Positions 1,251 through 62,874 of a DNA stretch of 64,000 nt are shown in pieces. Position 1 is the first letter of the stretch, and the number at the start of each line of letters is the position of its first letter. The notes beneath the pieces were generated by a model, which was given only the letters and a program-made list of their open reading frames with translations, ran no database searches and had not been told where the DNA came from. Origin of the DNA: Planctomicrobium piriforme (GTDB lineage Bacteria; Planctomycetota; Planctomycetia; Pirellulales; UBA1268); contig CAMBUD010000004.1 in the NCBI GenBank assembly GCA_945871035.1, forward strand, positions 9,001-73,000. Reading direction: 5' to 3'. The translations under genes were made by a program, and so were the position numbers.

Positions 1251-3347
1251 TCAATGCAACCGCATGCCAGGGAGGGCACCGCTGTCAGGAGAGAGAAGAT
1301 AGACACCCGGTGAACCCGGGCCGCTGGCCGCCACCACCATCCCTGAACTCAGACCAAACTTCATCTGCCGTGGAGCCAGATTGGCGACCACAACCACTAG
1401 TCTGCCGACAAGTGAGTCTGGCGTGTAAACCCCTTTGATTCCGGCAAAAACGGTGCGGACGGTGTCGTCTCCGAGGCTGAGAGTGAGCCGCAGCAATTTT
1501 TTAGCGTCCGGCACTTCTTCGGCCGCGATCACTCGCGCCACGCGCAGGTCGATTTTTGCAAAATCGTCGATGGTGCATTCGGCGGCTAACGGTTCGGTGG
1601 TAAGGCTGTTGCCAGCATCGACTGCAGCGGCTTGTGAAAGGTCCACGTGTTTTACTCCGGGGGGTTGTGCGGGTGAGTCTTGCGACGAGTGGGCCAGCAT
1701 GGTCGCCACGTCCGCTGCCTCCACTCGTCGCATCAGAGGCGTAAACAATCCAATGGGAATACCTGCCAGCGGCGTACGGGATTCCTTCCAAGACTCGATT
1801 GGACCGCCGATAAGAGCGCCAACCTGTTCGGCAAAAACTGGCAGAACGGGGGCTAGATAGACAGCAATCTGCCTAAATAAGTTGATCGCCACCGTAGCCA
1901 CATTCTGCAATTGCACCGCTGAATCGGCACCGGCCTTGGCGAGTTTCCAAGGCTGTTGGGTATCGACGTAGAGATTGGCACGATCGGCTGCCAGCATGAT
2001 GATTCGCATGGCCCGCGCAGAGTCGCACGCCTCAAAGGCTTCGGCAATTGAGTCGCCATCCGCTGCTGCCTGCGCGAAAAGTCCACCATCGGCCGGATAG
2101 CTTGGCGACAGACCGGTTGGCTCTAACCAGCGAGCAGTGCGGCTGGCCAAATTGACGACCTTGCCAACCAGATCGGCATTCACCTTTGCGGTAAACTCTT
2201 CCAGATTCAAATCGATGTCGTCGATGTTACCGGAGAGTTTAGCGGCGTAGTAATAGCGCAGCATTCCCGGGTCGAGATGCTCGCGATAGGTGCTGGCTAA
2301 TAAAAATGTCCCCCTACTCTTGGACATTTTCTGGCCGTTGACGGTCAGGAAGCCATGCACGTGCACCCGCGTGGGAAGCGAGAGGCCGGCTGCCTGCAGC
2401 ATCGCCGGCCAGAAAAGCGTGTGGAAGTAGACGATGTCTTTGCCAATGAAGTGGTGGATTTCTGCGGTCGCCCCAGCAGGCGCACTTGTCTGCCACCACG
2501 ATTCGAACGACTCACCACTGACTGCACACCATTCGCTGGTGGCTGCCAGATAGCCGATTGGTGCGTCAAACCAGACATACCAGTAGTGGCCAGGTGCATC
2601 GGGAATCTCGAAGCCGAAGTAGGGCGCGGGCCGCGAAATATCCCAGTCTCGAAGCGGCTCGCCCAAGAAGTGCCCGCTGAGATAGTTGGCAATGGGAGGA
2701 TCGAGTGCACCAGACGTTTGAGTCCATTGTGTGAGAAAGGGCCGCATTGTCTCGAGCATCACAAACAGATGATCCGCCGAGCGAACATCAGGCTTTGCAC
2801 CCGAGAGCGTGCTCAGTGGGTCGATCAGATCAGCCGGGCTGTAGGTGGCACCGCACTGTTCACAGGCATCACCGTATTGGTCGATCGCACGACAACGCGG
2901 GCAGGTTCCACGCACAAAGCGGTCGGCCAGAAAAACACCCGCTACTGGGTCGTAGAGTTGCTGCACCGATCGCGATGTGATGAGGCCTCGGCTGCGTAGC
3001 GACTGCCAGACGTCGCCACAGCACCGCTTGTTGGCCGGGCTATCGGTAGAACCGTAATGATCGAAGGCAATTTGAAAACCACTGAAATCGGCCAGATGGG
3101 CAGATCGCATGGCGGCGATTAAATCCCGCTCGCTGCGACCCTCGGCCTGCGCACGGATCATAATCGCTGTGCCGTGCGTGTCGTCTGCACAGAGATAAAT
3201 TGCGCGATGACCGCACAGTTTCTGAAAACGCACAAAGATATCGGTCTGGATGTATTCGACCAAGTGCCCGAGATGGATGTGACCATTGGCGTAGGGCAGG
3301 GCGGAGGTGACGAGGATTCGGCGGTTGGGTTGATTGGGAGGATTCAC
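1251..3347 (-). CDS. metG: Methionine--tRNA ligase with C-terminal tRNA-binding (Trbp111/EMAP-like) domain
   Basis: HIGH region '[13 protein letters not shown]', KMSKS loop 'KMSKSRG', zinc knuckle '[18 protein letters not shown]', C-terminal '[29 protein letters not shown]'. Start set at GTG 3347, 10 aa before '[12 protein letters not shown]'. The longest ORF runs to 3527, but the extra 60 aa look non-coding. Confidence 0.93.
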
Positions 3348-41787: not shown

Positions 41788-44136
41788 TTAGGTTCCGGCG
41801 GCGGCGGCCTCGGCGGCCCGCGTTTGGGCGTGGTAGAGCCGTGCATAGGCGCCTTCGGCGGCAAGCAGTGCTTCGTGCGTGCCGCTTTCGACAATCACGC
41901 CCGCATCGAGCACGACGAGCCGATCGGCCCGTCTGAGCGTGGAAAGCCGATGGGCAATGGCGATTGTGGTTCGGCCTGTAACGAGCCTGTCGACAGCCGT
42001 TTGGATGAGCACCTCGGTTTCGGCATCAACGCTTGAGGTGGCTTCGTCCAGTACGAGAATCGCCGGATCGACCAGCAGCGCTCGCGCAATGGAGAGCCGC
42101 TGGCGTTCGCCGCCGGAAAGCGAGCCACCCCGTTCGCCCACACGCGAGTCGTACGCCGCTGGCAGCGCGAGGATGAATTCGTGGGCCCCGGCGGCCCGGG
42201 CAGCCGCCACGATCCGCTCACCCGACGCCTCTGGCCGACCGTAGGCGATATTTTCCGCAACGGTGCCAAAAAAGAGGAAAGGCTCCTGCAACACGCAGCC
42301 AAGATTGCGACGGTAATCGGAAATCGATAGTTCGCGTAGGTCCACACCGTCGACTTTGATCGTACCACTCGACGGATCATAAAATCGGCAAACAAGATTT
42401 GCGAGCGTCGTCTTCCCCGAGCCGCTTGTGCCGACCAATCCAACCATCTCTCCCGGTTCGATCACCAGATCGATGCCGTGCAGCACTTCGCGCGATCCAT
42501 AGCGAAAGTGCACGCCAGAGATTTCGATGCGACCGCGAACCCGTCCGGGCTTGATCGGCTGGAGGGCCTCGGCAACGGTTGGCTGACAGTCGAGCAGCTC
42601 AAAGATTCGCTGGGCGCTGGCCGCTGCACGCTGCGTGGCTGGCACCATGCGAATCATCGACTCGACGCGACCATAAAAACGCGCAATGTAGGCGAGGAAC
42701 GCGGTGAGTGCACCCACTGTTACCGCGCCATTGAAAACCAGCCAAGCGCCGGCACCCCACACCACCAACAGGCCTGCTTCACTAAAGAAGCTGATCAGCG
42801 GACCAAAAAATGACCAGACGATGTTGACGCGGTCGCTCGTCTCAAGCACGCGATCATTGGCCGCGCGGAAGCGATCGATCTCCCGCGATTCCTGCGCAAA
42901 TGCCTTGACAACGCGGATGCCGGGAATGGTATCGGCCAGCGTGCTAGTCATATCCGACCAGGCTACGTTGGAACGAATAAAACCACGACGCAGTCGGGAT
43001 CGCACGCTGTAGATGAGCCAGACAACTAATGGGAATGGGCCGAGGGTGACCACAGCCAAGAGCGGATTGATCCAGAGCAGCACAGTGGCCGTGAGCAGCA
43101 CCAGCATCACGTTGGATGAAAAATCGATCAGATTTGACGAGAGAAACGTGTTGATGCGTTCGGTGTCGCTGCCGACACGCGACATCAGATCACCGGTGCG
43201 CTTGCCGGAAAAGAAGTCGAGTGAAAGCGTTTGCATGTGGGAGTACGTGCGCACACGCAGATCGGCCGCCACTCGCTCGCTCACCCACGCCAGCGTCCAC
43301 GCCTGCGCCCAGGAAAGCAGCCAGGCGGCAACGGCTGCAGCTGTCAGTCCAGCGAGATACCACCACACAAGCGCAAACGGCACGGACTCCCCGAGTTGTC
43401 GAGGGATCAGCACCTTGTCCACCAGCGGCATCGTGAGGTAGGGGGGGATCAGCGAGACGGCGGTGCAAATGAGTGAGAGCATTCCGCCGAACAGCGCCAC
43501 GGCGGCGTGCGGCCTTGCAAAGGAAATAACGCGCACCAAGCTCCGCCAAGACGCAGTGGTTGTCCCGGCAGGCAGCCCCGACTCTTCATCGCTCAGCGTG
43601 AGCGTTGGATCAGTTGGCGTAGCATCTTCACGCAGATGCGTGCTCGTGCGGGTGGCTGCCTCATTTGCGCCCAGGGCATCGGCCCGGCTGTCGGCGAGGC
43701 GCTGGCCGTGCACCTGATTGTCAAAGGCGTCTTCGAGTGCCAGCACACCTTTCGCACGGGCCGGTGTAAACATCCAGCGTGCGATCACCCGATCGTGATG
43801 CGTCAACTCGAGTCGACCAACCGCTGCACGCATCGATACATGGATGTGCGTTTGAGAATCGAGTAACCACGACCACTGGGCAAGGCTTGTGGCTGGCTGT
43901 CGGGAGTCTGCTTTTTCATCGGCAGAGGCCGGTGTGTCGGCTAGGAGTCGGCGATCGGTGAGCACCATCCAGCCGTCGCTAAAGTGCAGGCTGGCATTCA
44001 GATCGAATCGACAGCTAGCCACGACAGATTCGCCCGGCTCCAACACAAAACGATCAACGCCAGGCGGTCCGCCCGCTGTGGAAATGCCAGCACTTGCCAG
44101 TGGAAAGGGGGATGGGCTGGGTATGGGAATGAGCAT
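41788..44136 (-). CDS. Fused ABC transporter permease/ATPase (exporter type) with ~195-aa N-terminal cytoplasmic extension
   Basis: Six-TM exporter region, Walker A 'GTSGSGKTT', signature 'LSGGERQRLSIARAL', Walker B 'ILVLDEATS'. The N-terminal 'FVLEPGESVVASCRFDLNASLHFSDGWMVLTDRRLLAD...GRLELTHHDRVIARWMF' looks like a bacterial PH (bPH) domain. Confidence 0.85.
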   Translation of the reverse strand: MLIPIPSPSPFPLASAGISTAGGPPGVDRFVLEPGESVVASCRFDLNASLHFSDGWMVLTDRRLLADTPASADEKADSRQPATSLAQWSWLLDSQTHIHVSMRAAVGRLELTHHDRVIARWMFTPARAKGVLALEDAFDNQVHGQRLADSRADALGANEAATRTSTHLREDATPTDPTLTLSDEESGLPAGTTTASWRSLVRVISFARPHAAVALFGGMLSLICTAVSLIPPYLTMPLVDKVLIPRQLGESVPFALVWWYLAGLTAAAVAAWLLSWAQAWTLAWVSERVAADLRVRTYSHMQTLSLDFFSGKRTGDLMSRVGSDTERINTFLSSNLIDFSSNVMLVLLTATVLLWINPLLAVVTLGPFPLVVWLIYSVRSRLRRGFIRSNVAWSDMTSTLADTIPGIRVVKAFAQESREIDRFRAANDRVLETSDRVNIVWSFFGPLISFFSEAGLLVVWGAGAWLVFNGAVTVGALTAFLAYIARFYGRVESMIRMVPATQRAAASAQRIFELLDCQPTVAEALQPIKPGRVRGRIEISGVHFRYGSREVLHGIDLVIEPGEMVGLVGTSGSGKTTLANLVCRFYDPSSGTIKVDGVDLRELSISDYRRNLGCVLQEPFLFFGTVAENIAYGRPEASGERIVAAARAAGAHEFILALPAAYDSRVGERGGSLSGGERQRLSIARALLVDPAILVLDEATSSVDAETEVLIQTAVDRLVTGRTTIAIAHRLSTLRRADRLVVLDAGVIVESGTHEALLAAEGAYARLYHAQTRAAEAAAAGT

Positions 44137-44520
44137 TGTAACAGGAGCAGCAAAGGAGCTTGAGATGCTTGAAATGACAAAAACAGACGTTTTTTACCGG
44201 CAGAGACCGTATAAATGGCCTTCCAAAGTCCGACCAACAGAATAGCATCTATCTTTCCGAATATCCCTAAATTAACCTTTTGTCTCAGGGCCTCTTTGCC
44301 GGTAATCGCCGGTAAGGAATGCCAGTAGCCCGTAATCGCTTTTCAAAAACGTCCAGCCCGAGCAGTAAAAAATACCCACCGACCCTCCAGTTTGCCTACC
44401 CAGTCGCGCATACGAATCATTAGCCATTCTATGAATTGCCCCTTGTGCGCTCCGCGTTACGTGCGTCTGCCAATGCCTTTGGACGCCTTAGAAAAAAATC
44501 GGATAGGGACGATCTTGTGT

Positions 44521-44537
44521 TGGCACGAAACGTGCAA
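44521..44537 (+). promoter_or_regulatory. Sigma-54 (-24/-12) promoter candidate facing cphA
   Basis: TGGCACGAAACGTGCAA versus consensus TGGCACG-N4-TTGCW. The GG and GC dinucleotides are at the canonical spacing, with a single mismatch (G for the first T of TTGC). It lies in a ~1 kb non-coding region. Confidence 0.5.
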
Positions 44538-45175
44538 GACTTTTATTTTGTCTGCCAGCGATTCGCAATCCCAAAAAGAAAGCGTAAGATTTGAATCGTG
44601 TTCTGCGAAGCGTTCGGTGCACGGGATCGACTCTTCGCAAGAGCAAGAGAATGAGAATGAGCAAGCGATCGCCATGGCCCCGAGGGCAGGCAGTCGATTG
44701 TTGAGTCGGTGTTTGATTGGTGACGGTGATGCAGCAGCGATGATTGGTTGGATTCATGGTGCCGCGAGAAACGCGCACCGCAAGCGAACGTGCGTCCGCG
44801 TGGCGTGCGGCGGTGCAAAGCGATCTTTCGGTGAGGGAAATTATTCGTCCCATGGCCCACTTGGCCGGTTTCTTGTCAGTAGGGATTCGTTCCCCCGCGT
44901 TGTGCTTTTGCCTGCCTGCAAAGGTCTTCCTTGCCAGAGGCATTTCCCCCGCAGCTCCCGACTGCTGGCCGCCCTGACGCCCCTACAGCTCAGCGTTGGT
45001 CGGTTGTCGATTTCTATAAAAATGGCTTCTCGGGCGACGCGCCCGGTCGGCCAGCCTGCGATTGGTGCAATCTTCCGCAAACAGTCCACCGGAATGTCCG
45101 CTGGCTGGAAGAGATGCACCCCACCAAAACCCACGCCCGCGTCTGCGTTTGGGTAAGAGAGTACGTTTTCCTTCC

Positions 45176-48100
45176 ATGGAGATTCAAACGCTCAAGGTTC
45201 TTCGCGGTCCCAACCAGTGGGCTTCGTTTCCGGTTCTTGAGGCGTGGGTAGACCTCGGTCGCCTCGAGGATTACCCCTCAGACACGATTCCCGGTTTCAA
45301 TGATCGGCTCATAGAATGGCTGCCGAGCCTCATCGAGCACCGCTGTTCAATCGGTGAGCGTGGCGGTTTCTTGCAACGTCTCCGCACCGGCACGTGGATG
45401 GGACACATCCTCGAGCACGTCACCCTTGAGTTGCAATCCATCGCCGGTCAGCCAGTCAGCTTTGGCAAAGCCCGGGAAACAGCAACACGCGGCGTCTACA
45501 AGGTAGTGATTCAGTTTAAAGAAGAATCGTTTGCCATCGAATGCCTCCACACAGCGCAGCGCTTGCTGATGGCCGCCATAGCCGGTGAAACGTTCGACGT
45601 GGCTTGCGAGATCAAGCGATTAAAAAAGGTGCTGCTCGACGTGCAACTGGGCCCGAGTACGCGATCGATTGTTGAAGCTGCAGCGGCGCGGGGTATTCCA
45701 ACGCGACGGCTCAACGATGGGTCGTTGGTTCGGCTGGGGCATGGAGCCAAACAGCGACGCATCATCGCTGCCGAAACCGACCGCACCGGCGCGGTCGCTG
45801 AATCGATTGCGCAGGACAAAGAACTCACGCGCACGCTCCTCCTCGAGGCCGGTATTCCGGTGTCCGAGGGGCGGCCGGTTGTGGATGCAGCCGATGCATG
45901 GTTGGCGGCTGAGGAAATCGGTGTGCCAGTTGTGGTCAAGCCCCGCTACGGCAATCAAGGGCGGGGCGTATCGGTTAGCCTTTTCACCCGCGCTGAGGTG
46001 GAAAAGGCTTGGCACGTTGCCCGTGAACAGGATTCAGCGGTTGTTGTCGAACGGTTTGTAAGCGGGAGCGATTATCGGCTGCTGGTTGTGGGCGGTGCGG
46101 TTGTGGCTGTGGCTCGGCGGCATCCCCCCACGGTCATGGGCACCGGTCAATTAACAGTGCAGCAACTCGTCGACCGCATCAATGAGGATCCGCGCCGCTG
46201 TGGCGACCATGCCGGGGCGTTGAGCCCGGTTGTCATCGATGAAGTGGCCTTAGCCGTTCTGGCTGAACAGGGCTTGGCATTGGAGAGCATTCCCGCGGCA
46301 GAGCGTCTTGTTTTTCTGCGTCAAAACGCCAATTTGAGCACCGGAGGGAGTGCCGAGGATGTCACCGACACCGTGCACCCAGCCGTTGCATCGCTGGCGG
46401 TTGAGGCGGCACGCATTATCGGATTGGATGTGGCTGGCGTTGATGTTGTCGCACTCGATATCACCCAACCGCTCGAGTTGCAACGCGGCGTTGTGATTGA
46501 AGTCAATGCTGGGCCAGGTCTGCGCATGCACATCGAGCCGACAGTGGGGACTCCACGTGCCGTTGGTGCCGCAATCGTCGACACGCTTTTCGCGCCCGGA
46601 GAAGACGGCCGCATTCCGGTCGCCGCCGTGACGGGTACCAATGGCAAGACGACCGTGGTGCGGCTGTTGGCCCATTTGGCCGCAGCGGGTGGCGCAACCG
46701 TTGGCACCACCTGCACCGAAGGGATTTGGGTGGGCAACCGACAGATCGACAGCGGCGACTGCAGCGGCCCCGCAAGCGCACGTCGCGTGCTTGCCAATCC
46801 ATTGGTGACAACAGCGGTTCTGGAAACGGCACGCGGTGGCATTCTTCGTGAGGGTTGTGGATTTGATCACTGTGATGTGGCGGTGGTGACAAATATTTCC
46901 TCAGGCGATCACTTAGGCCTCAACGAAATTGATACCCCCGAGCAATTGGCATGGGTCAAGGGGGCGATCGTCACGGCTGTGCAGACGAAAGGATCAGCCG
47001 TGCTCAATGCAGCCGATCCGCTCGTTGTTGCCATGAAACAATGGTGCAAGGGACAAGTTGTGTACTTCGCCTTAGATCCCAACAACCCAGTCCTCGTTGC
47101 GCACCTTGCTCAGGGAGGGCTGACGGCCACGGTGCGGGATGGTTGGATCGTACTCTGCGACGGTCCACGCGAAACCCGACTGGCGAATCTCGATCGCGTG
47201 CCACTTGTGCACCGCGGCATGATCGGCTTCCAAGTGGAAAACGTACTGGCGAGTGCCGCTGCGGCATGGTGCCTCGGAGTGCCACTGGAACTGGTGCGAT
47301 TGGGTTTGGAAAGTTTTTCATCTGGCTTAGCCGGTTCACCAGGGCGTTTCAATCTGCTCGATCTGGAAGGAACGTCGATTGTGGTGGACTACGGTCACAA
47401 CATCCCGGCACTCGAGCAAATTTGCGGAGCGATCCAGAAGATGTCACACGGCCGTCGCACTGCCGTTTATTCGGCCGCTGGTGACCGTCGCGACGAGGAT
47501 CTGATTGCCCAAGGCCGCTTGCTCGGGGCGACTTTTGATCGGGTCGTGATTTATGAAGATGCCTATGTTCGCGGTCGGCAACCGGGAGAAATCACCCGGA
47601 TGATCTCCGAGGGCATTGCGCAGGCATCGCGGCCGGGGCATCCCACCACGATCGAAGCGGGCGGCAACTGGTCTGACTCGGCAGCGCACGTACTCGATGC
47701 CGTGCAGCCCGGCGAGCTTGTGCTGCTGCAAGCTGATTCTGTGGAGCAGTCCATCCCCTGGTTGGAAGCGCACTACGGTAAGCGACTGCGGGAAACAAAC
47801 CTCGAGGAGATGGCGGGGCTGTCGGCGTACAGCCAACAGGAACGCGTGCCCGGACAGAGCGAACCAGTTGAGATCAAGAACGGCCATCTTGGCCGTGCCG
47901 CCTGTGCCGCTCGAGACTTGGCTGCCGGTGAAACGATCCTGAAGGCCTGGGGGCCGCAGTTGCCCAAACGCACGCGACACTCGATGCAGGTGGATGTTGA
48001 CACCCACATCCTGCCCGATGGAGTGGTCGTGCTTCTCAACCACTCCTGCACGCCTAATTGTGGTCTCATTATTCGCTCGGGCACCAAGGAGATCGAGGCC

Positions 48101-48331
48101 AGATCGCTGCGACCGATTCGGGCCGGTGAAGAACTCACATTCGACTACGAGACTTTTGAATACGAGATCGAGTACCTCAAAGGTCCGTGTCTGTGCGGAT
48201 CGGCTCAGTGCCGAGGACACCTTCGCGGCTACAAATATTTACCGGCAGATGTCAAGGCACGCTACGGCGAGTTCATTGCCGAATATCTGCGGGCACTGGA
48301 AGGCGAGATAACGGTTCCCATCGGGGCCTAG
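45176..48331 (+). CDS. cphA: Cyanophycin synthetase fused in frame to a C-terminal SET-domain methyltransferase module
   Basis: N-domain 'MEIQTLKVLRGPNQWASFPVLEAWVDLG', ATP-grasp 'VVVKPRYGNQGRGVSV', Mur-ligase-type P-loop 'VTGTNGKTT'. Residues ~898-1051 carry 'NHSCTPNC', 'ELTFDY' and 'CLCGSAQCRGH' (SET/post-SET). ATG 45176 chosen; the longest ORF starts at 45062. Confidence 0.9.
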   Translation: MEIQTLKVLRGPNQWASFPVLEAWVDLGRLEDYPSDTIPGFNDRLIEWLPSLIEHRCSIGERGGFLQRLRTGTWMGHILEHVTLELQSIAGQPVSFGKARETATRGVYKVVIQFKEESFAIECLHTAQRLLMAAIAGETFDVACEIKRLKKVLLDVQLGPSTRSIVEAAAARGIPTRRLNDGSLVRLGHGAKQRRIIAAETDRTGAVAESIAQDKELTRTLLLEAGIPVSEGRPVVDAADAWLAAEEIGVPVVVKPRYGNQGRGVSVSLFTRAEVEKAWHVAREQDSAVVVERFVSGSDYRLLVVGGAVVAVARRHPPTVMGTGQLTVQQLVDRINEDPRRCGDHAGALSPVVIDEVALAVLAEQGLALESIPAAERLVFLRQNANLSTGGSAEDVTDTVHPAVASLAVEAARIIGLDVAGVDVVALDITQPLELQRGVVIEVNAGPGLRMHIEPTVGTPRAVGAAIVDTLFAPGEDGRIPVAAVTGTNGKTTVVRLLAHLAAAGGATVGTTCTEGIWVGNRQIDSGDCSGPASARRVLANPLVTTAVLETARGGILREGCGFDHCDVAVVTNISSGDHLGLNEIDTPEQLAWVKGAIVTAVQTKGSAVLNAADPLVVAMKQWCKGQVVYFALDPNNPVLVAHLAQGGLTATVRDGWIVLCDGPRETRLANLDRVPLVHRGMIGFQVENVLASAAAAWCLGVPLELVRLGLESFSSGLAGSPGRFNLLDLEGTSIVVDYGHNIPALEQICGAIQKMSHGRRTAVYSAAGDRRDEDLIAQGRLLGATFDRVVIYEDAYVRGRQPGEITRMISEGIAQASRPGHPTTIEAGGNWSDSAAHVLDAVQPGELVLLQADSVEQSIPWLEAHYGKRLRETNLEEMAGLSAYSQQERVPGQSEPVEIKNGHLGRAACAARDLAAGETILKAWGPQLPKRTRHSMQVDVDTHILPDGVVVLLNHSCTPNCGLIIRSGTKEIEARSLRPIRAGEELTFDYETFEYEIEYLKGPCLCGSAQCRGHLRGYKYLPADVKARYGEFIAEYLRALEGEITVPIGA

Positions 48332-62857: not shown

Positions 62858-62874
62858 TGGCACACAGAATGCAT
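62858..62874 (+). promoter_or_regulatory. Sigma-54 (-24/-12) promoter candidate
   Basis: TGGCACACAGAATGCAT. TGGCAC is perfect and the GC of the -12 element is at the canonical spacing (ATGCA versus TTGCA). An A/T-rich tract at 62760-62830 separates it from the dyad array. Confidence 0.5.

Follow-up and report, generated by a model that had tools for sequence, protein, structure and literature searches.

What controls cphA, the cyanophycin synthetase gene, in this planctomycete, and what occupies the long gap that precedes it? The window, by which we mean the whole 64,000-nt stretch of DNA analysed, comes from the genome of an uncultured freshwater planctomycete, assembled to 2.79 Mb in 162 contigs. 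Within it, a 1039-nt gap is flanked by a divergent ABC exporter gene on the minus strand (41788-44136) and by cphA, whose ATG is at 45176. The original prediction described this gap as a non-coding spacer with a near-consensus sigma-54 promoter and a ~630-nt leader. To our knowledge, little is understood of how cyanophycin synthesis is regulated outside cyanobacteria, and almost nothing is known of promoters, leaders or regulatory peptides in Planctomycetes. Nothing relevant was found in the searchable literature on a leader of cphA, on its control by sigma-54 or on maps of planctomycete transcription starts.

The gap at 44137-45175 is a conserved control region of cphA. We favour, at somewhat better than even confidence, a model in which a sigma-54 promoter, a folded leader, a stalling mini-ORF (a short open reading frame, ORF) and a spacer ORF together control the gene. 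The same layout, in which the spacer separates cphA from a divergent ABC exporter gene, recurs in 10 related genomes of seven genera, with spacers of 756-1051 nt. The closest relatives are metagenome-assembled genomes of uncultured freshwater Pirellulales/Planctomycetia from Lake Mendota, Lac Pavin, Lake Zurich and similar sites. When ten spacers were aligned, separate conserved blocks stood out amid poorly conserved sequence. These blocks, in alignment order, and the frames and gene to which they relate are:

44137-45175, plus strand: intergenic control region, 1039 nt, delimited by the ORF map and Pfam matches
44235-44275, no strand assigned: block A (CAACAGAAT..TTTCCGAATATCCCTAAATTAAC), with invariant columns AGAA..CGA..A..CC in the 10 genomes
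~44357-44370: the short block AAAAATACC
44417-44437, plus strand: block B, in relatives TTGTCATCCCTTC(C/A)ATGA, a TCAT-N7-ATGA dyad ~100 nt upstream of the sigma-54 motif
44521-44536, plus strand: sigma-54-type −24/−12 element TGGCACGAAACGTGCA, with GG at 44522-23 and GC at 44534-35, facing cphA
44562-44590, plus strand: block C2, with a 5′-proximal hairpin at 44564-44584, UU-CGC-(variable stem)-GCG-UA(A/G)ACU
44741-44986 (250 nt) in the alignment: block D, with a structured leader domain at 44754-44977, plus strand (RNAalifold, 34 sequences)
~45023-45165 in the alignment: block E, with a structured 3′ leader at 45023-45152, plus strand, comprising E1 (45023-45053), E2 (45065-45119) and E3 (45130-45152) (RNAalifold, 22 sequences)
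44852-44977, plus strand: leader mini-ORF of 41 codons plus TGA, encoding MAHLAGFLSVGIRSPALCFCLPAKVFLARGISPAAPDCWPP, under purifying selection and kept in relatives
44431-45156, plus strand: long frame f0, 241 codons from ATG 44431 (stop to stop, 44329-45156), kept open and in frame
45176-48331, plus strand: cphA, cyanophycin synthetase, the regulated gene (Pfam Cyanophycin_syn, ATP-grasp, Mur_ligase_M/C and a C-terminal SET domain)

The sigma-54-type element

The predicted motif is present on the plus strand. TGGCACGAAACGTGCA fits 11 of the 12 specified positions of TGGCACG-N4-TTGCW, with a gap of exactly 10 nt between GG and GC, and would place the transcription start at ~44546-44548. A logo of 30 loci reads Y, GGCA (30/30), C (28/30), G (26/30), five variable positions, TGC (30/30) and W. 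The core (GG, CA, TGC and W) is invariant in six of the seven genera, while the N5 spacer and the flanks vary. The pattern GGCA-N8-TGC-W is kept in position in about 39 of 41 related loci, and the motif is present in 15 of the 16 loci of an independent search; all seven loci of genus g7 have it, for example as TGGCACGGGAAATGCT. Read as codons, the block always encodes Arg as CGG and Cys as TGC, with W and R alternating; together with the variable N5, this points to a signal in the DNA rather than in a protein.

The genome encodes the cognate machinery, namely RpoN (Sigma54_DBD, 204.7 bits) and enhancer-binding proteins, represented by nine strong Sigma54_activat matches. Moreover, planctomycete cphA loci that lack the leader carry, 75-333 nt upstream of cphA, sigma-54-like motifs that match at least 10 of the 12 positions (L071/L074, L073, L080, L083/L118, L090 and L096; for example, TGGCATGGATCGTGCT at −75). 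These loci form about six independent groups, compared with an estimated 0.5 or so expected by chance, which suggests that sigma-54 control of cphA, as judged from these motifs, is older than the leader. Phylogenetic footprinting, rpoN with its nine potential partners and the motifs at other planctomycete cphA genes thus all support the sigma-54 reading.

The rarity of the motif, originally put at about one match per 10^6 positions, was overstated. The 10-base pattern occurs twice in the window against 0.41 expected, and two matches were reached in 7 of 100 shuffles. Several further observations weigh against a sigma-54 promoter. Genome-wide, YGGCAYR-N5-TGCW yields 61 matches compared with 45-56 in Markov simulations, a chance-level frequency. 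A match in a single genome therefore proves nothing, and the weight of the motif rests on its conservation. The T usual at −15 is missing in all 30 loci, which have G or another base there. Genus g11 alone has no motif, yet it retains the leader. No convincing activator site or dyads were found in the window's own sequence, in which block B is degenerate. Finally, the motif sits inside the long open frame, whose constraint against stops and out-of-frame indels begins ~90 nt upstream of it. Considering both sides, 44521-44536 is probably a sigma-54 promoter.

In its GG-N10-GC geometry and TGGCAC/TGCA elements, the candidate promoter resembles those that work with NtrC-family activators, such as glnAp2, as well as the conserved sigma-54 promoter at 62858-62873 of the same window. 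Further shared features are a nitrogen-related target and a genome encoding rpoN and nine enhancer-binding proteins. It differs in having G for T at −15, in lacking clear tandem activator dyads, in its unusually long leader and in lying within a probably translated frame. The cphA spacer has no copy of the GGGGCGATTCGCCCC dyad of the 62.6-kb promoter. The original prediction had also noted a core, GCGATTCGC, shared with the dyads near that promoter: it is present at 44558-44566, but it occurs four times in the window compared with 2.0 expected and is not conserved, only its TTCGC half being kept in relatives while the left half is not.

The folded leader and its mini-ORF

The suggestion that the leader could hold RNA structure was borne out. 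Judging from covariation, the sequence downstream of the sigma-54 element is a conserved folded RNA, beginning ~15 nt after the predicted start. Compensatory base changes were detected in three parts of the predicted ~630-nt leader: 44564-44584, 44754-44977 and 45023-45152.

The first part lies in block C2, a fixed 29-nt unit found in 25 distinct sequences. Its inner stem is compensated (CUCG/CGAG, UUUCG/CGGAA and UCCC/GGGA), and 74.5% of alignment cells are paired compared with 23-48% when partners are slid. Cells with double changes number 13 versus 7.5 in shuffles, a value reached by 2 of 500. The window's own copy folds weakly, at −1.9 kcal/mol. C2 also has the geometry of a sigma-70-type promoter, TTCGCA-N17-TAAGAT, with a −10 of the type typical of the source genome, which makes it a rival promoter candidate.

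Block D is the largest of the three. It occurs in single copy in 94 of the 176 genomes of the family. Two congeneric species differ at 3 positions in ~150 nt of it, while the flanks are ~65% identical; such conservation is too high for a stretch that merely encodes protein. In the predicted structure, a closing helix pairs UCAUGGU (44754-60) with GCCCUGA (44971-77), the latter including the stop codon of the mini-ORF. It encloses a long hairpin P1 (44761-44832), a GGCC/GGCC hairpin just past the mini-ORF AUG and a hairpin P3 (44911-44940). In the 34 sequences, 96.6% of cells are paired compared with 92.6% in shuffles and at most 45% in slid controls, and 69 cells contain double changes compared with 22.9; none of 500 shuffles reached the observed values. 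Block E is similar, with 92.5% of cells paired versus 83.8% in shuffles and 64 double-change cells versus 22, again reached by none of 500 shuffles. The apex of hairpin E1, GGCGACGCGCC, is invariant and nine of its 13 pairs covary; E2 is a multi-stem element that includes CCGGAAUGUCCGG.

No Rfam 15 family matched either strand of 43900-45400 at E ≤ 1. Hairpin E1 was ruled out as an intrinsic terminator, as no U-tract follows it, and the only terminator-like match in the leader was a 5-bp hairpin at the start of the mini-ORF. An inverted repeat of 17 nt (44964-80/45039-55; 82% complementary) links the end of the mini-ORF to the 3′ arm of E1. It was rejected as an attenuator-style alternative pairing, being specific to the window; its E1 arm is not kept in relatives. 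A self-complementary (C)CAUGG box occurs in three conserved copies, at the start of block D (44755-44760), at the mini-ORF AUG (44850-44856) and at the cphA AUG (45174-45180). Any two of these boxes could pair, so alternative folds may exist; the invariance of the boxes precludes covariation.

The spacer is not devoid of credible ORFs, as had been claimed: block D contains a 41-codon ORF under purifying selection, and a 241-codon frame at 44431-45156 is kept open in relatives. Every relative with the leader has an uninterrupted mini-ORF, including all 29 loci of the main comparison, where it is 41-50 codons long, and further loci. Its peptide ends in SPAAPDCWPP followed by TGA. Over the last 13 codons, the ratio of nonsynonymous to synonymous substitution rates (dN/dS) is 0.19, and differences by codon position number 392/318/1035. 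The first seven codons have a dN/dS of 1.12 and are constrained as RNA instead. The conserved C-terminus is ..G-x-S-P-A-A-P-D-C-W/Q/R-P-P, with a core of A-x-D-x-x-P-P-UGA; most genera end in DCWPP, DCQPP(P) or DCRPP and genus g7 in DHGPP or DRGPP. In all 34 loci compared for this feature, the stop following PP(P) is TGA, never TAA or TAG, and the next base is mostly C. Outside the family, the peptide pattern yielded one probable chance match in 343 other Pirellulales genomes.

A longer version, with 73 codons from ATG 44756, was rejected despite its apparent conservation in 8 of 10 genomes. Among 35 loci, this ORF is cut short at codon 27 in ten and at codon 4 in two, and five loci have AAG for the ATG. 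The ATG at 44756 is conserved because it pairs with the region of the mini-ORF stop. Variant ends (..APVSAPP, ..APVCAPP and ..PGCWAPP before the stop) were observed in L059, L063 and L070, loci whose long frame seems to be interrupted, as is directly evident in L070. These leaders may be decaying or diverging versions, and useful as natural mutants. In genus g7 (L008, corresponding to G009:C26, ORF 1903-3132, and L133-L138), the same motif, block D and mini-ORF precede a gene for an ATP-grasp_3 enzyme rather than cphA. This distribution suggests that the leader is a portable module serving amino-acid ligase genes.

By analogy, the mini-ORF looks like a stalling peptide of the TnaC/SpeFL/RAPP type. 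Its stop lies 198-246 nt from cphA, a distance similar to the tnaC-tnaA spacing. TnaC and SpeFL stall the ribosome at their own stop codons under the control of small molecules and block Rho (PMC8429421; bioRxiv 10.1101/604074). Like these leaders of the Escherichia coli tna and speF operons, the mini-ORF is a short upstream ORF (uORF) ~200 nt from a gene whose enzyme consumes amino acids, in a genome that encodes Rho, and is conserved only at its C-terminal residues and stop, PP-UGA corresponding to the Pro24-UGA of TnaC. Unlike them, it lies within a large covarying domain with its stop codon in the closing helix, lacks sequence similarity and a clear Rho-utilization (rut) site, and is associated with a sigma-54-type promoter and with a second, overlapping frame that is kept open.

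The motifs RGPP and RAPP are validated arrest sequences, frequent at the C-terminus of small uORFs (PMC12992588; PMC10951233). The mini-ORF shares with the peptides of this class (ApdA, ApdP, ApcA and CruR; PMC10951233, PMC7897499, PMC12992588) a C-terminal Pro-Pro, a small uORF on the same strand and an N-terminal part that varies freely, and the G009 relative (L008) ends in canonical RGPP; the remaining g7 loci have HGPP. It differs in that the window's peptide ends in DCWPP (DCQPP(P), DCRPP or DHGPP in relatives), without Arg at −4, and in that those peptides mostly monitor secretion or metal uptake and have localization signals, while the window's peptide has neither. With the classical attenuators of the trp, leu and his operons, the region has in common a leader peptide and conserved hairpins ahead of an amino-acid-related gene. 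It differs from them in lacking a run of regulatory codons, a terminator hairpin with U-tract and a conserved alternative pairing, and selection here acts on the C-terminus of the peptide rather than on codon identity; the peptide contains two Arg and one Asp residues, with no run of either.

Some of these data count against a regulatory stall. The window's peptide lacks the canonical RAPP/RGPP/RAGP core, and its CWPP is not among the validated arrest motifs. Nothing was found to link the mini-ORF to cphA in the form of a terminator, a clear rut site or a conserved alternative pairing, the inverted repeat being confined to the window; the C-over-G skew downstream is weak, at only +0.12.

The long open frame

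The long frame f0 is one base upstream of the frame of the mini-ORF. Among 29 loci, f0 contains no stops in 5,524 codons, whereas the two remaining frames of the plus strand have 140 and 72. Indels are few and all are multiples of three. The hypervariable linker between C2 and D has eleven lengths of 69-165 nt, and the distance from block B to the sigma-54 motif varies from 78 to 138 nt; all of these are multiples of three, and the latter interval contains no stops versus 45 and 9 in the other frames. Upstream of block B, distances vary by single bases. In an independent set of loci, all lengths are again multiples of three except in L070, where f0 is closed. The frame ends at TAA 45154-45156, 19 nt before the cphA AUG, and 16-22 nt before it in most loci.

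What is conserved is the frame rather than its product. The dN/dS values of f0 are 0.55-1.27, GC content is flat across codon positions and composition is the same as in the other frames. The product has no Pfam match, and its AlphaFold model has a predicted local distance difference test score (pLDDT) of 31 and a predicted template modelling score (pTM) of 0.14. We accordingly rejected selection for composition, such as a polycationic product, since f0 does not differ from the other frames in Arg content or net charge. The shadow of an antisense gene was rejected as well, as no minus-strand frame is open; the minus-strand ORFs (151, 105 and 97 aa) have no Pfam matches and are not open in relatives. 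Fusion of f0 to cphA by frameshifting or readthrough was rejected because frame relations 0, 1 and 2 occur about equally often. Frameshifting by +1 or −1 from the mini-ORF into f0 fails to explain the constraint upstream of the mini-ORF. From the pattern of stops and indels, we hold with good confidence that f0 is translated and that its product is irrelevant. Gene callers annotate the frame as a hypothetical protein (P0001-P0011, 221-277 aa), which is a caution for annotation: an ORF conserved only as a frame has been deposited in databases as a protein.

The constraint on f0 also bears on promoter number. It begins upstream of the sigma-54 motif, so the sigma-54 promoter cannot be the sole one, and a second, upstream promoter is implied, perhaps in block A. 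The consensus of this block, ..AGAA-N15-CCGA-N2-A-N2-CC-TAAATT.., spans 40 nt in the divergent promoter zone and is invariant across genera. It includes a −10-like TAAATT at 44268-44273, with a poor −35 in the window's own copy; −10 hexamers of the TAGACT/TAAACT type are also found 5′ of the source genome's tRNA genes. By these features, block A is a candidate for an upstream sigma-70-type promoter or a regulator site, and could be the promoter or operator of the ABC exporter operon, of the long frame or of both. Block B, a candidate activator site and/or start codon on the evidence of its dyad and ATG, includes the ATG at 44431, the point at which the multiple-of-three constraint sets in; this ATG is swapped for GTG, GAG or GTA in 4 of 30 loci. 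A 12-nt direct repeat at 44298/44328, noted originally, does exist, but relatives have no counterpart of the stretch around it, and it is not conserved.

Mechanism and competing explanations

In the mechanism that we propose, an enhancer-binding protein would activate sigma-54 RNA polymerase, yielding a transcript that starts at ~44547 with a leader of ~630 nt. Ribosomes translating the mini-ORF would pause or arrest at Pro-Pro-UGA through the combined effects of the nascent peptide and slow release by release factor 2. As the stop codon lies within the closing helix, a ribosome held there would have to remodel the fold: it would exclude the helix UCAUGGU/GCCCUGA and so refold the leader. This refolding would decide whether transcription, via Rho, and/or translation continues over the final ~200 nt to cphA. 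In the simplest view, the long frame would be a sequence-indifferent spacer ORF, translated from transcripts that start near block A. Its translation would carry ribosomes across the leader to ~20 nt from the cphA AUG, providing a second, sigma-54-independent mode of expression.

A more elaborate version, to which we give clearly less than even credence, joins two overlapping frames to two promoters. The ~240-codon f0, of no importance in its sequence, would be translated from an upstream promoter across the sigma-54 promoter, the folded domains and the arrest-peptide ORF. It would act as a ribosome conveyor, unfolding the leader, protecting it from Rho and bringing ribosomes up to the start of cphA. 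Transcripts from the sigma-54 promoter, lacking the f0 start, would fold and be gated by the PP-UGA stall, which would sense an amino-acid or translation-status signal. We found no description of a leader in which a frame conserved for openness alone overlaps a sensor uORF.

Of the explanations that dispense with one or more of these parts, the most serious holds that only sigma-70-type promoters operate, at C2 (start ~44597) and/or block A, and that the sigma-54-like block is conserved for another reason, such as forming a small RNA hairpin (GCACG-N3-CGUGC) or supplying codons of f0. The C2 pattern TTC..(23 nt)..GTA...T is indeed invariant in 10 of 10 genomes, including two genera in which the sigma-54 motif is altered or absent. 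An A-tract directly precedes its −35, TAGACT and TAAACT hexamers precede the source genome's tRNA genes, f0 requires an mRNA that starts upstream of 44431, and GCACG/CGTGC is palindromic in the window and in several relatives. However, the 17-nt "spacer" of C2 keeps a hairpin by compensatory changes, for which a promoter spacer has no reason, and the palindrome is lost in L003, L017, L019 and G011 while GG..GC stays. The W/R alternation and fixed CGG speak against selection at the codon level, an accidental conserved block matching 11 of 12 sigma-54 positions is improbable, and the leaderless cphA loci have sigma-54-like motifs of their own. We therefore consider this explanation unlikely.

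We find it less probable still that f0 is an ordinary, fast-evolving gene for a 241-aa protein whose conserved residues appear as the conserved blocks. This reading would account for a frame that is open in all loci, for indels in multiples of three and for the calls in public annotations. It is difficult to reconcile with the dN/dS values, which apply outside the nucleotide-constrained blocks, the flat GC content, a composition identical to that of other frames, the poor structural prediction and the lack of a Pfam match. In addition, the third-position signal in block D belongs to the frame of the mini-ORF, the blocks are near-identical between species at all codon positions (3 differences in ~150 nt) and covary as RNA, and f0 is interrupted in genera g7 and g11 and in L070, all of which retain the leader. 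As for a chance sigma-54 match in an ordinary long planctomycete intergenic region without special regulation, the unenriched genome-wide pattern (61 versus about 50) and the mere two matches in the window versus 0.41 expected count in its favour. Nevertheless, the motif, the RNA structures and the mini-ORF are conserved across 94 genomes and seven genera, and the related loci are 65-80% identical and so are not assembly duplicates of one sequence; this explanation is accordingly very improbable.

The preferred model, with sigma-54 promoter, folded leader, mini-ORF and spacer ORF, makes the locus a testable case of sigma-54 control of a nitrogen-storage enzyme. It would add leader peptides of the stalling type (D-x-x-P-P-UGA), a new family embedded in covarying RNA, and an ORF conserved in frame alone. 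Slowing of protein synthesis leads to cyanophycin accumulation. Should the peptide respond to arginine, aspartate or general translation stress, it would provide a molecular explanation for this accumulation, and a new ligand or signal for the short list of metabolite-sensing nascent peptides.

Two minor observations concern cphA itself and its relatives. A SET (methyltransferase) domain is in frame at the C-terminus of cphA (window 47867-48328; PF00856, E = 3.5e-11). In addition, several public contigs of metagenome-assembled genomes with 67-81% identical cphA (L058, L066, L069, L070, L073, L074 and L080), some of which carry the cphA leader too, are titled 'Candidatus Kuenenia' or 'Chitinophagaceae'; these titles look like taxonomic mis-assignments of Pirellulales bins.

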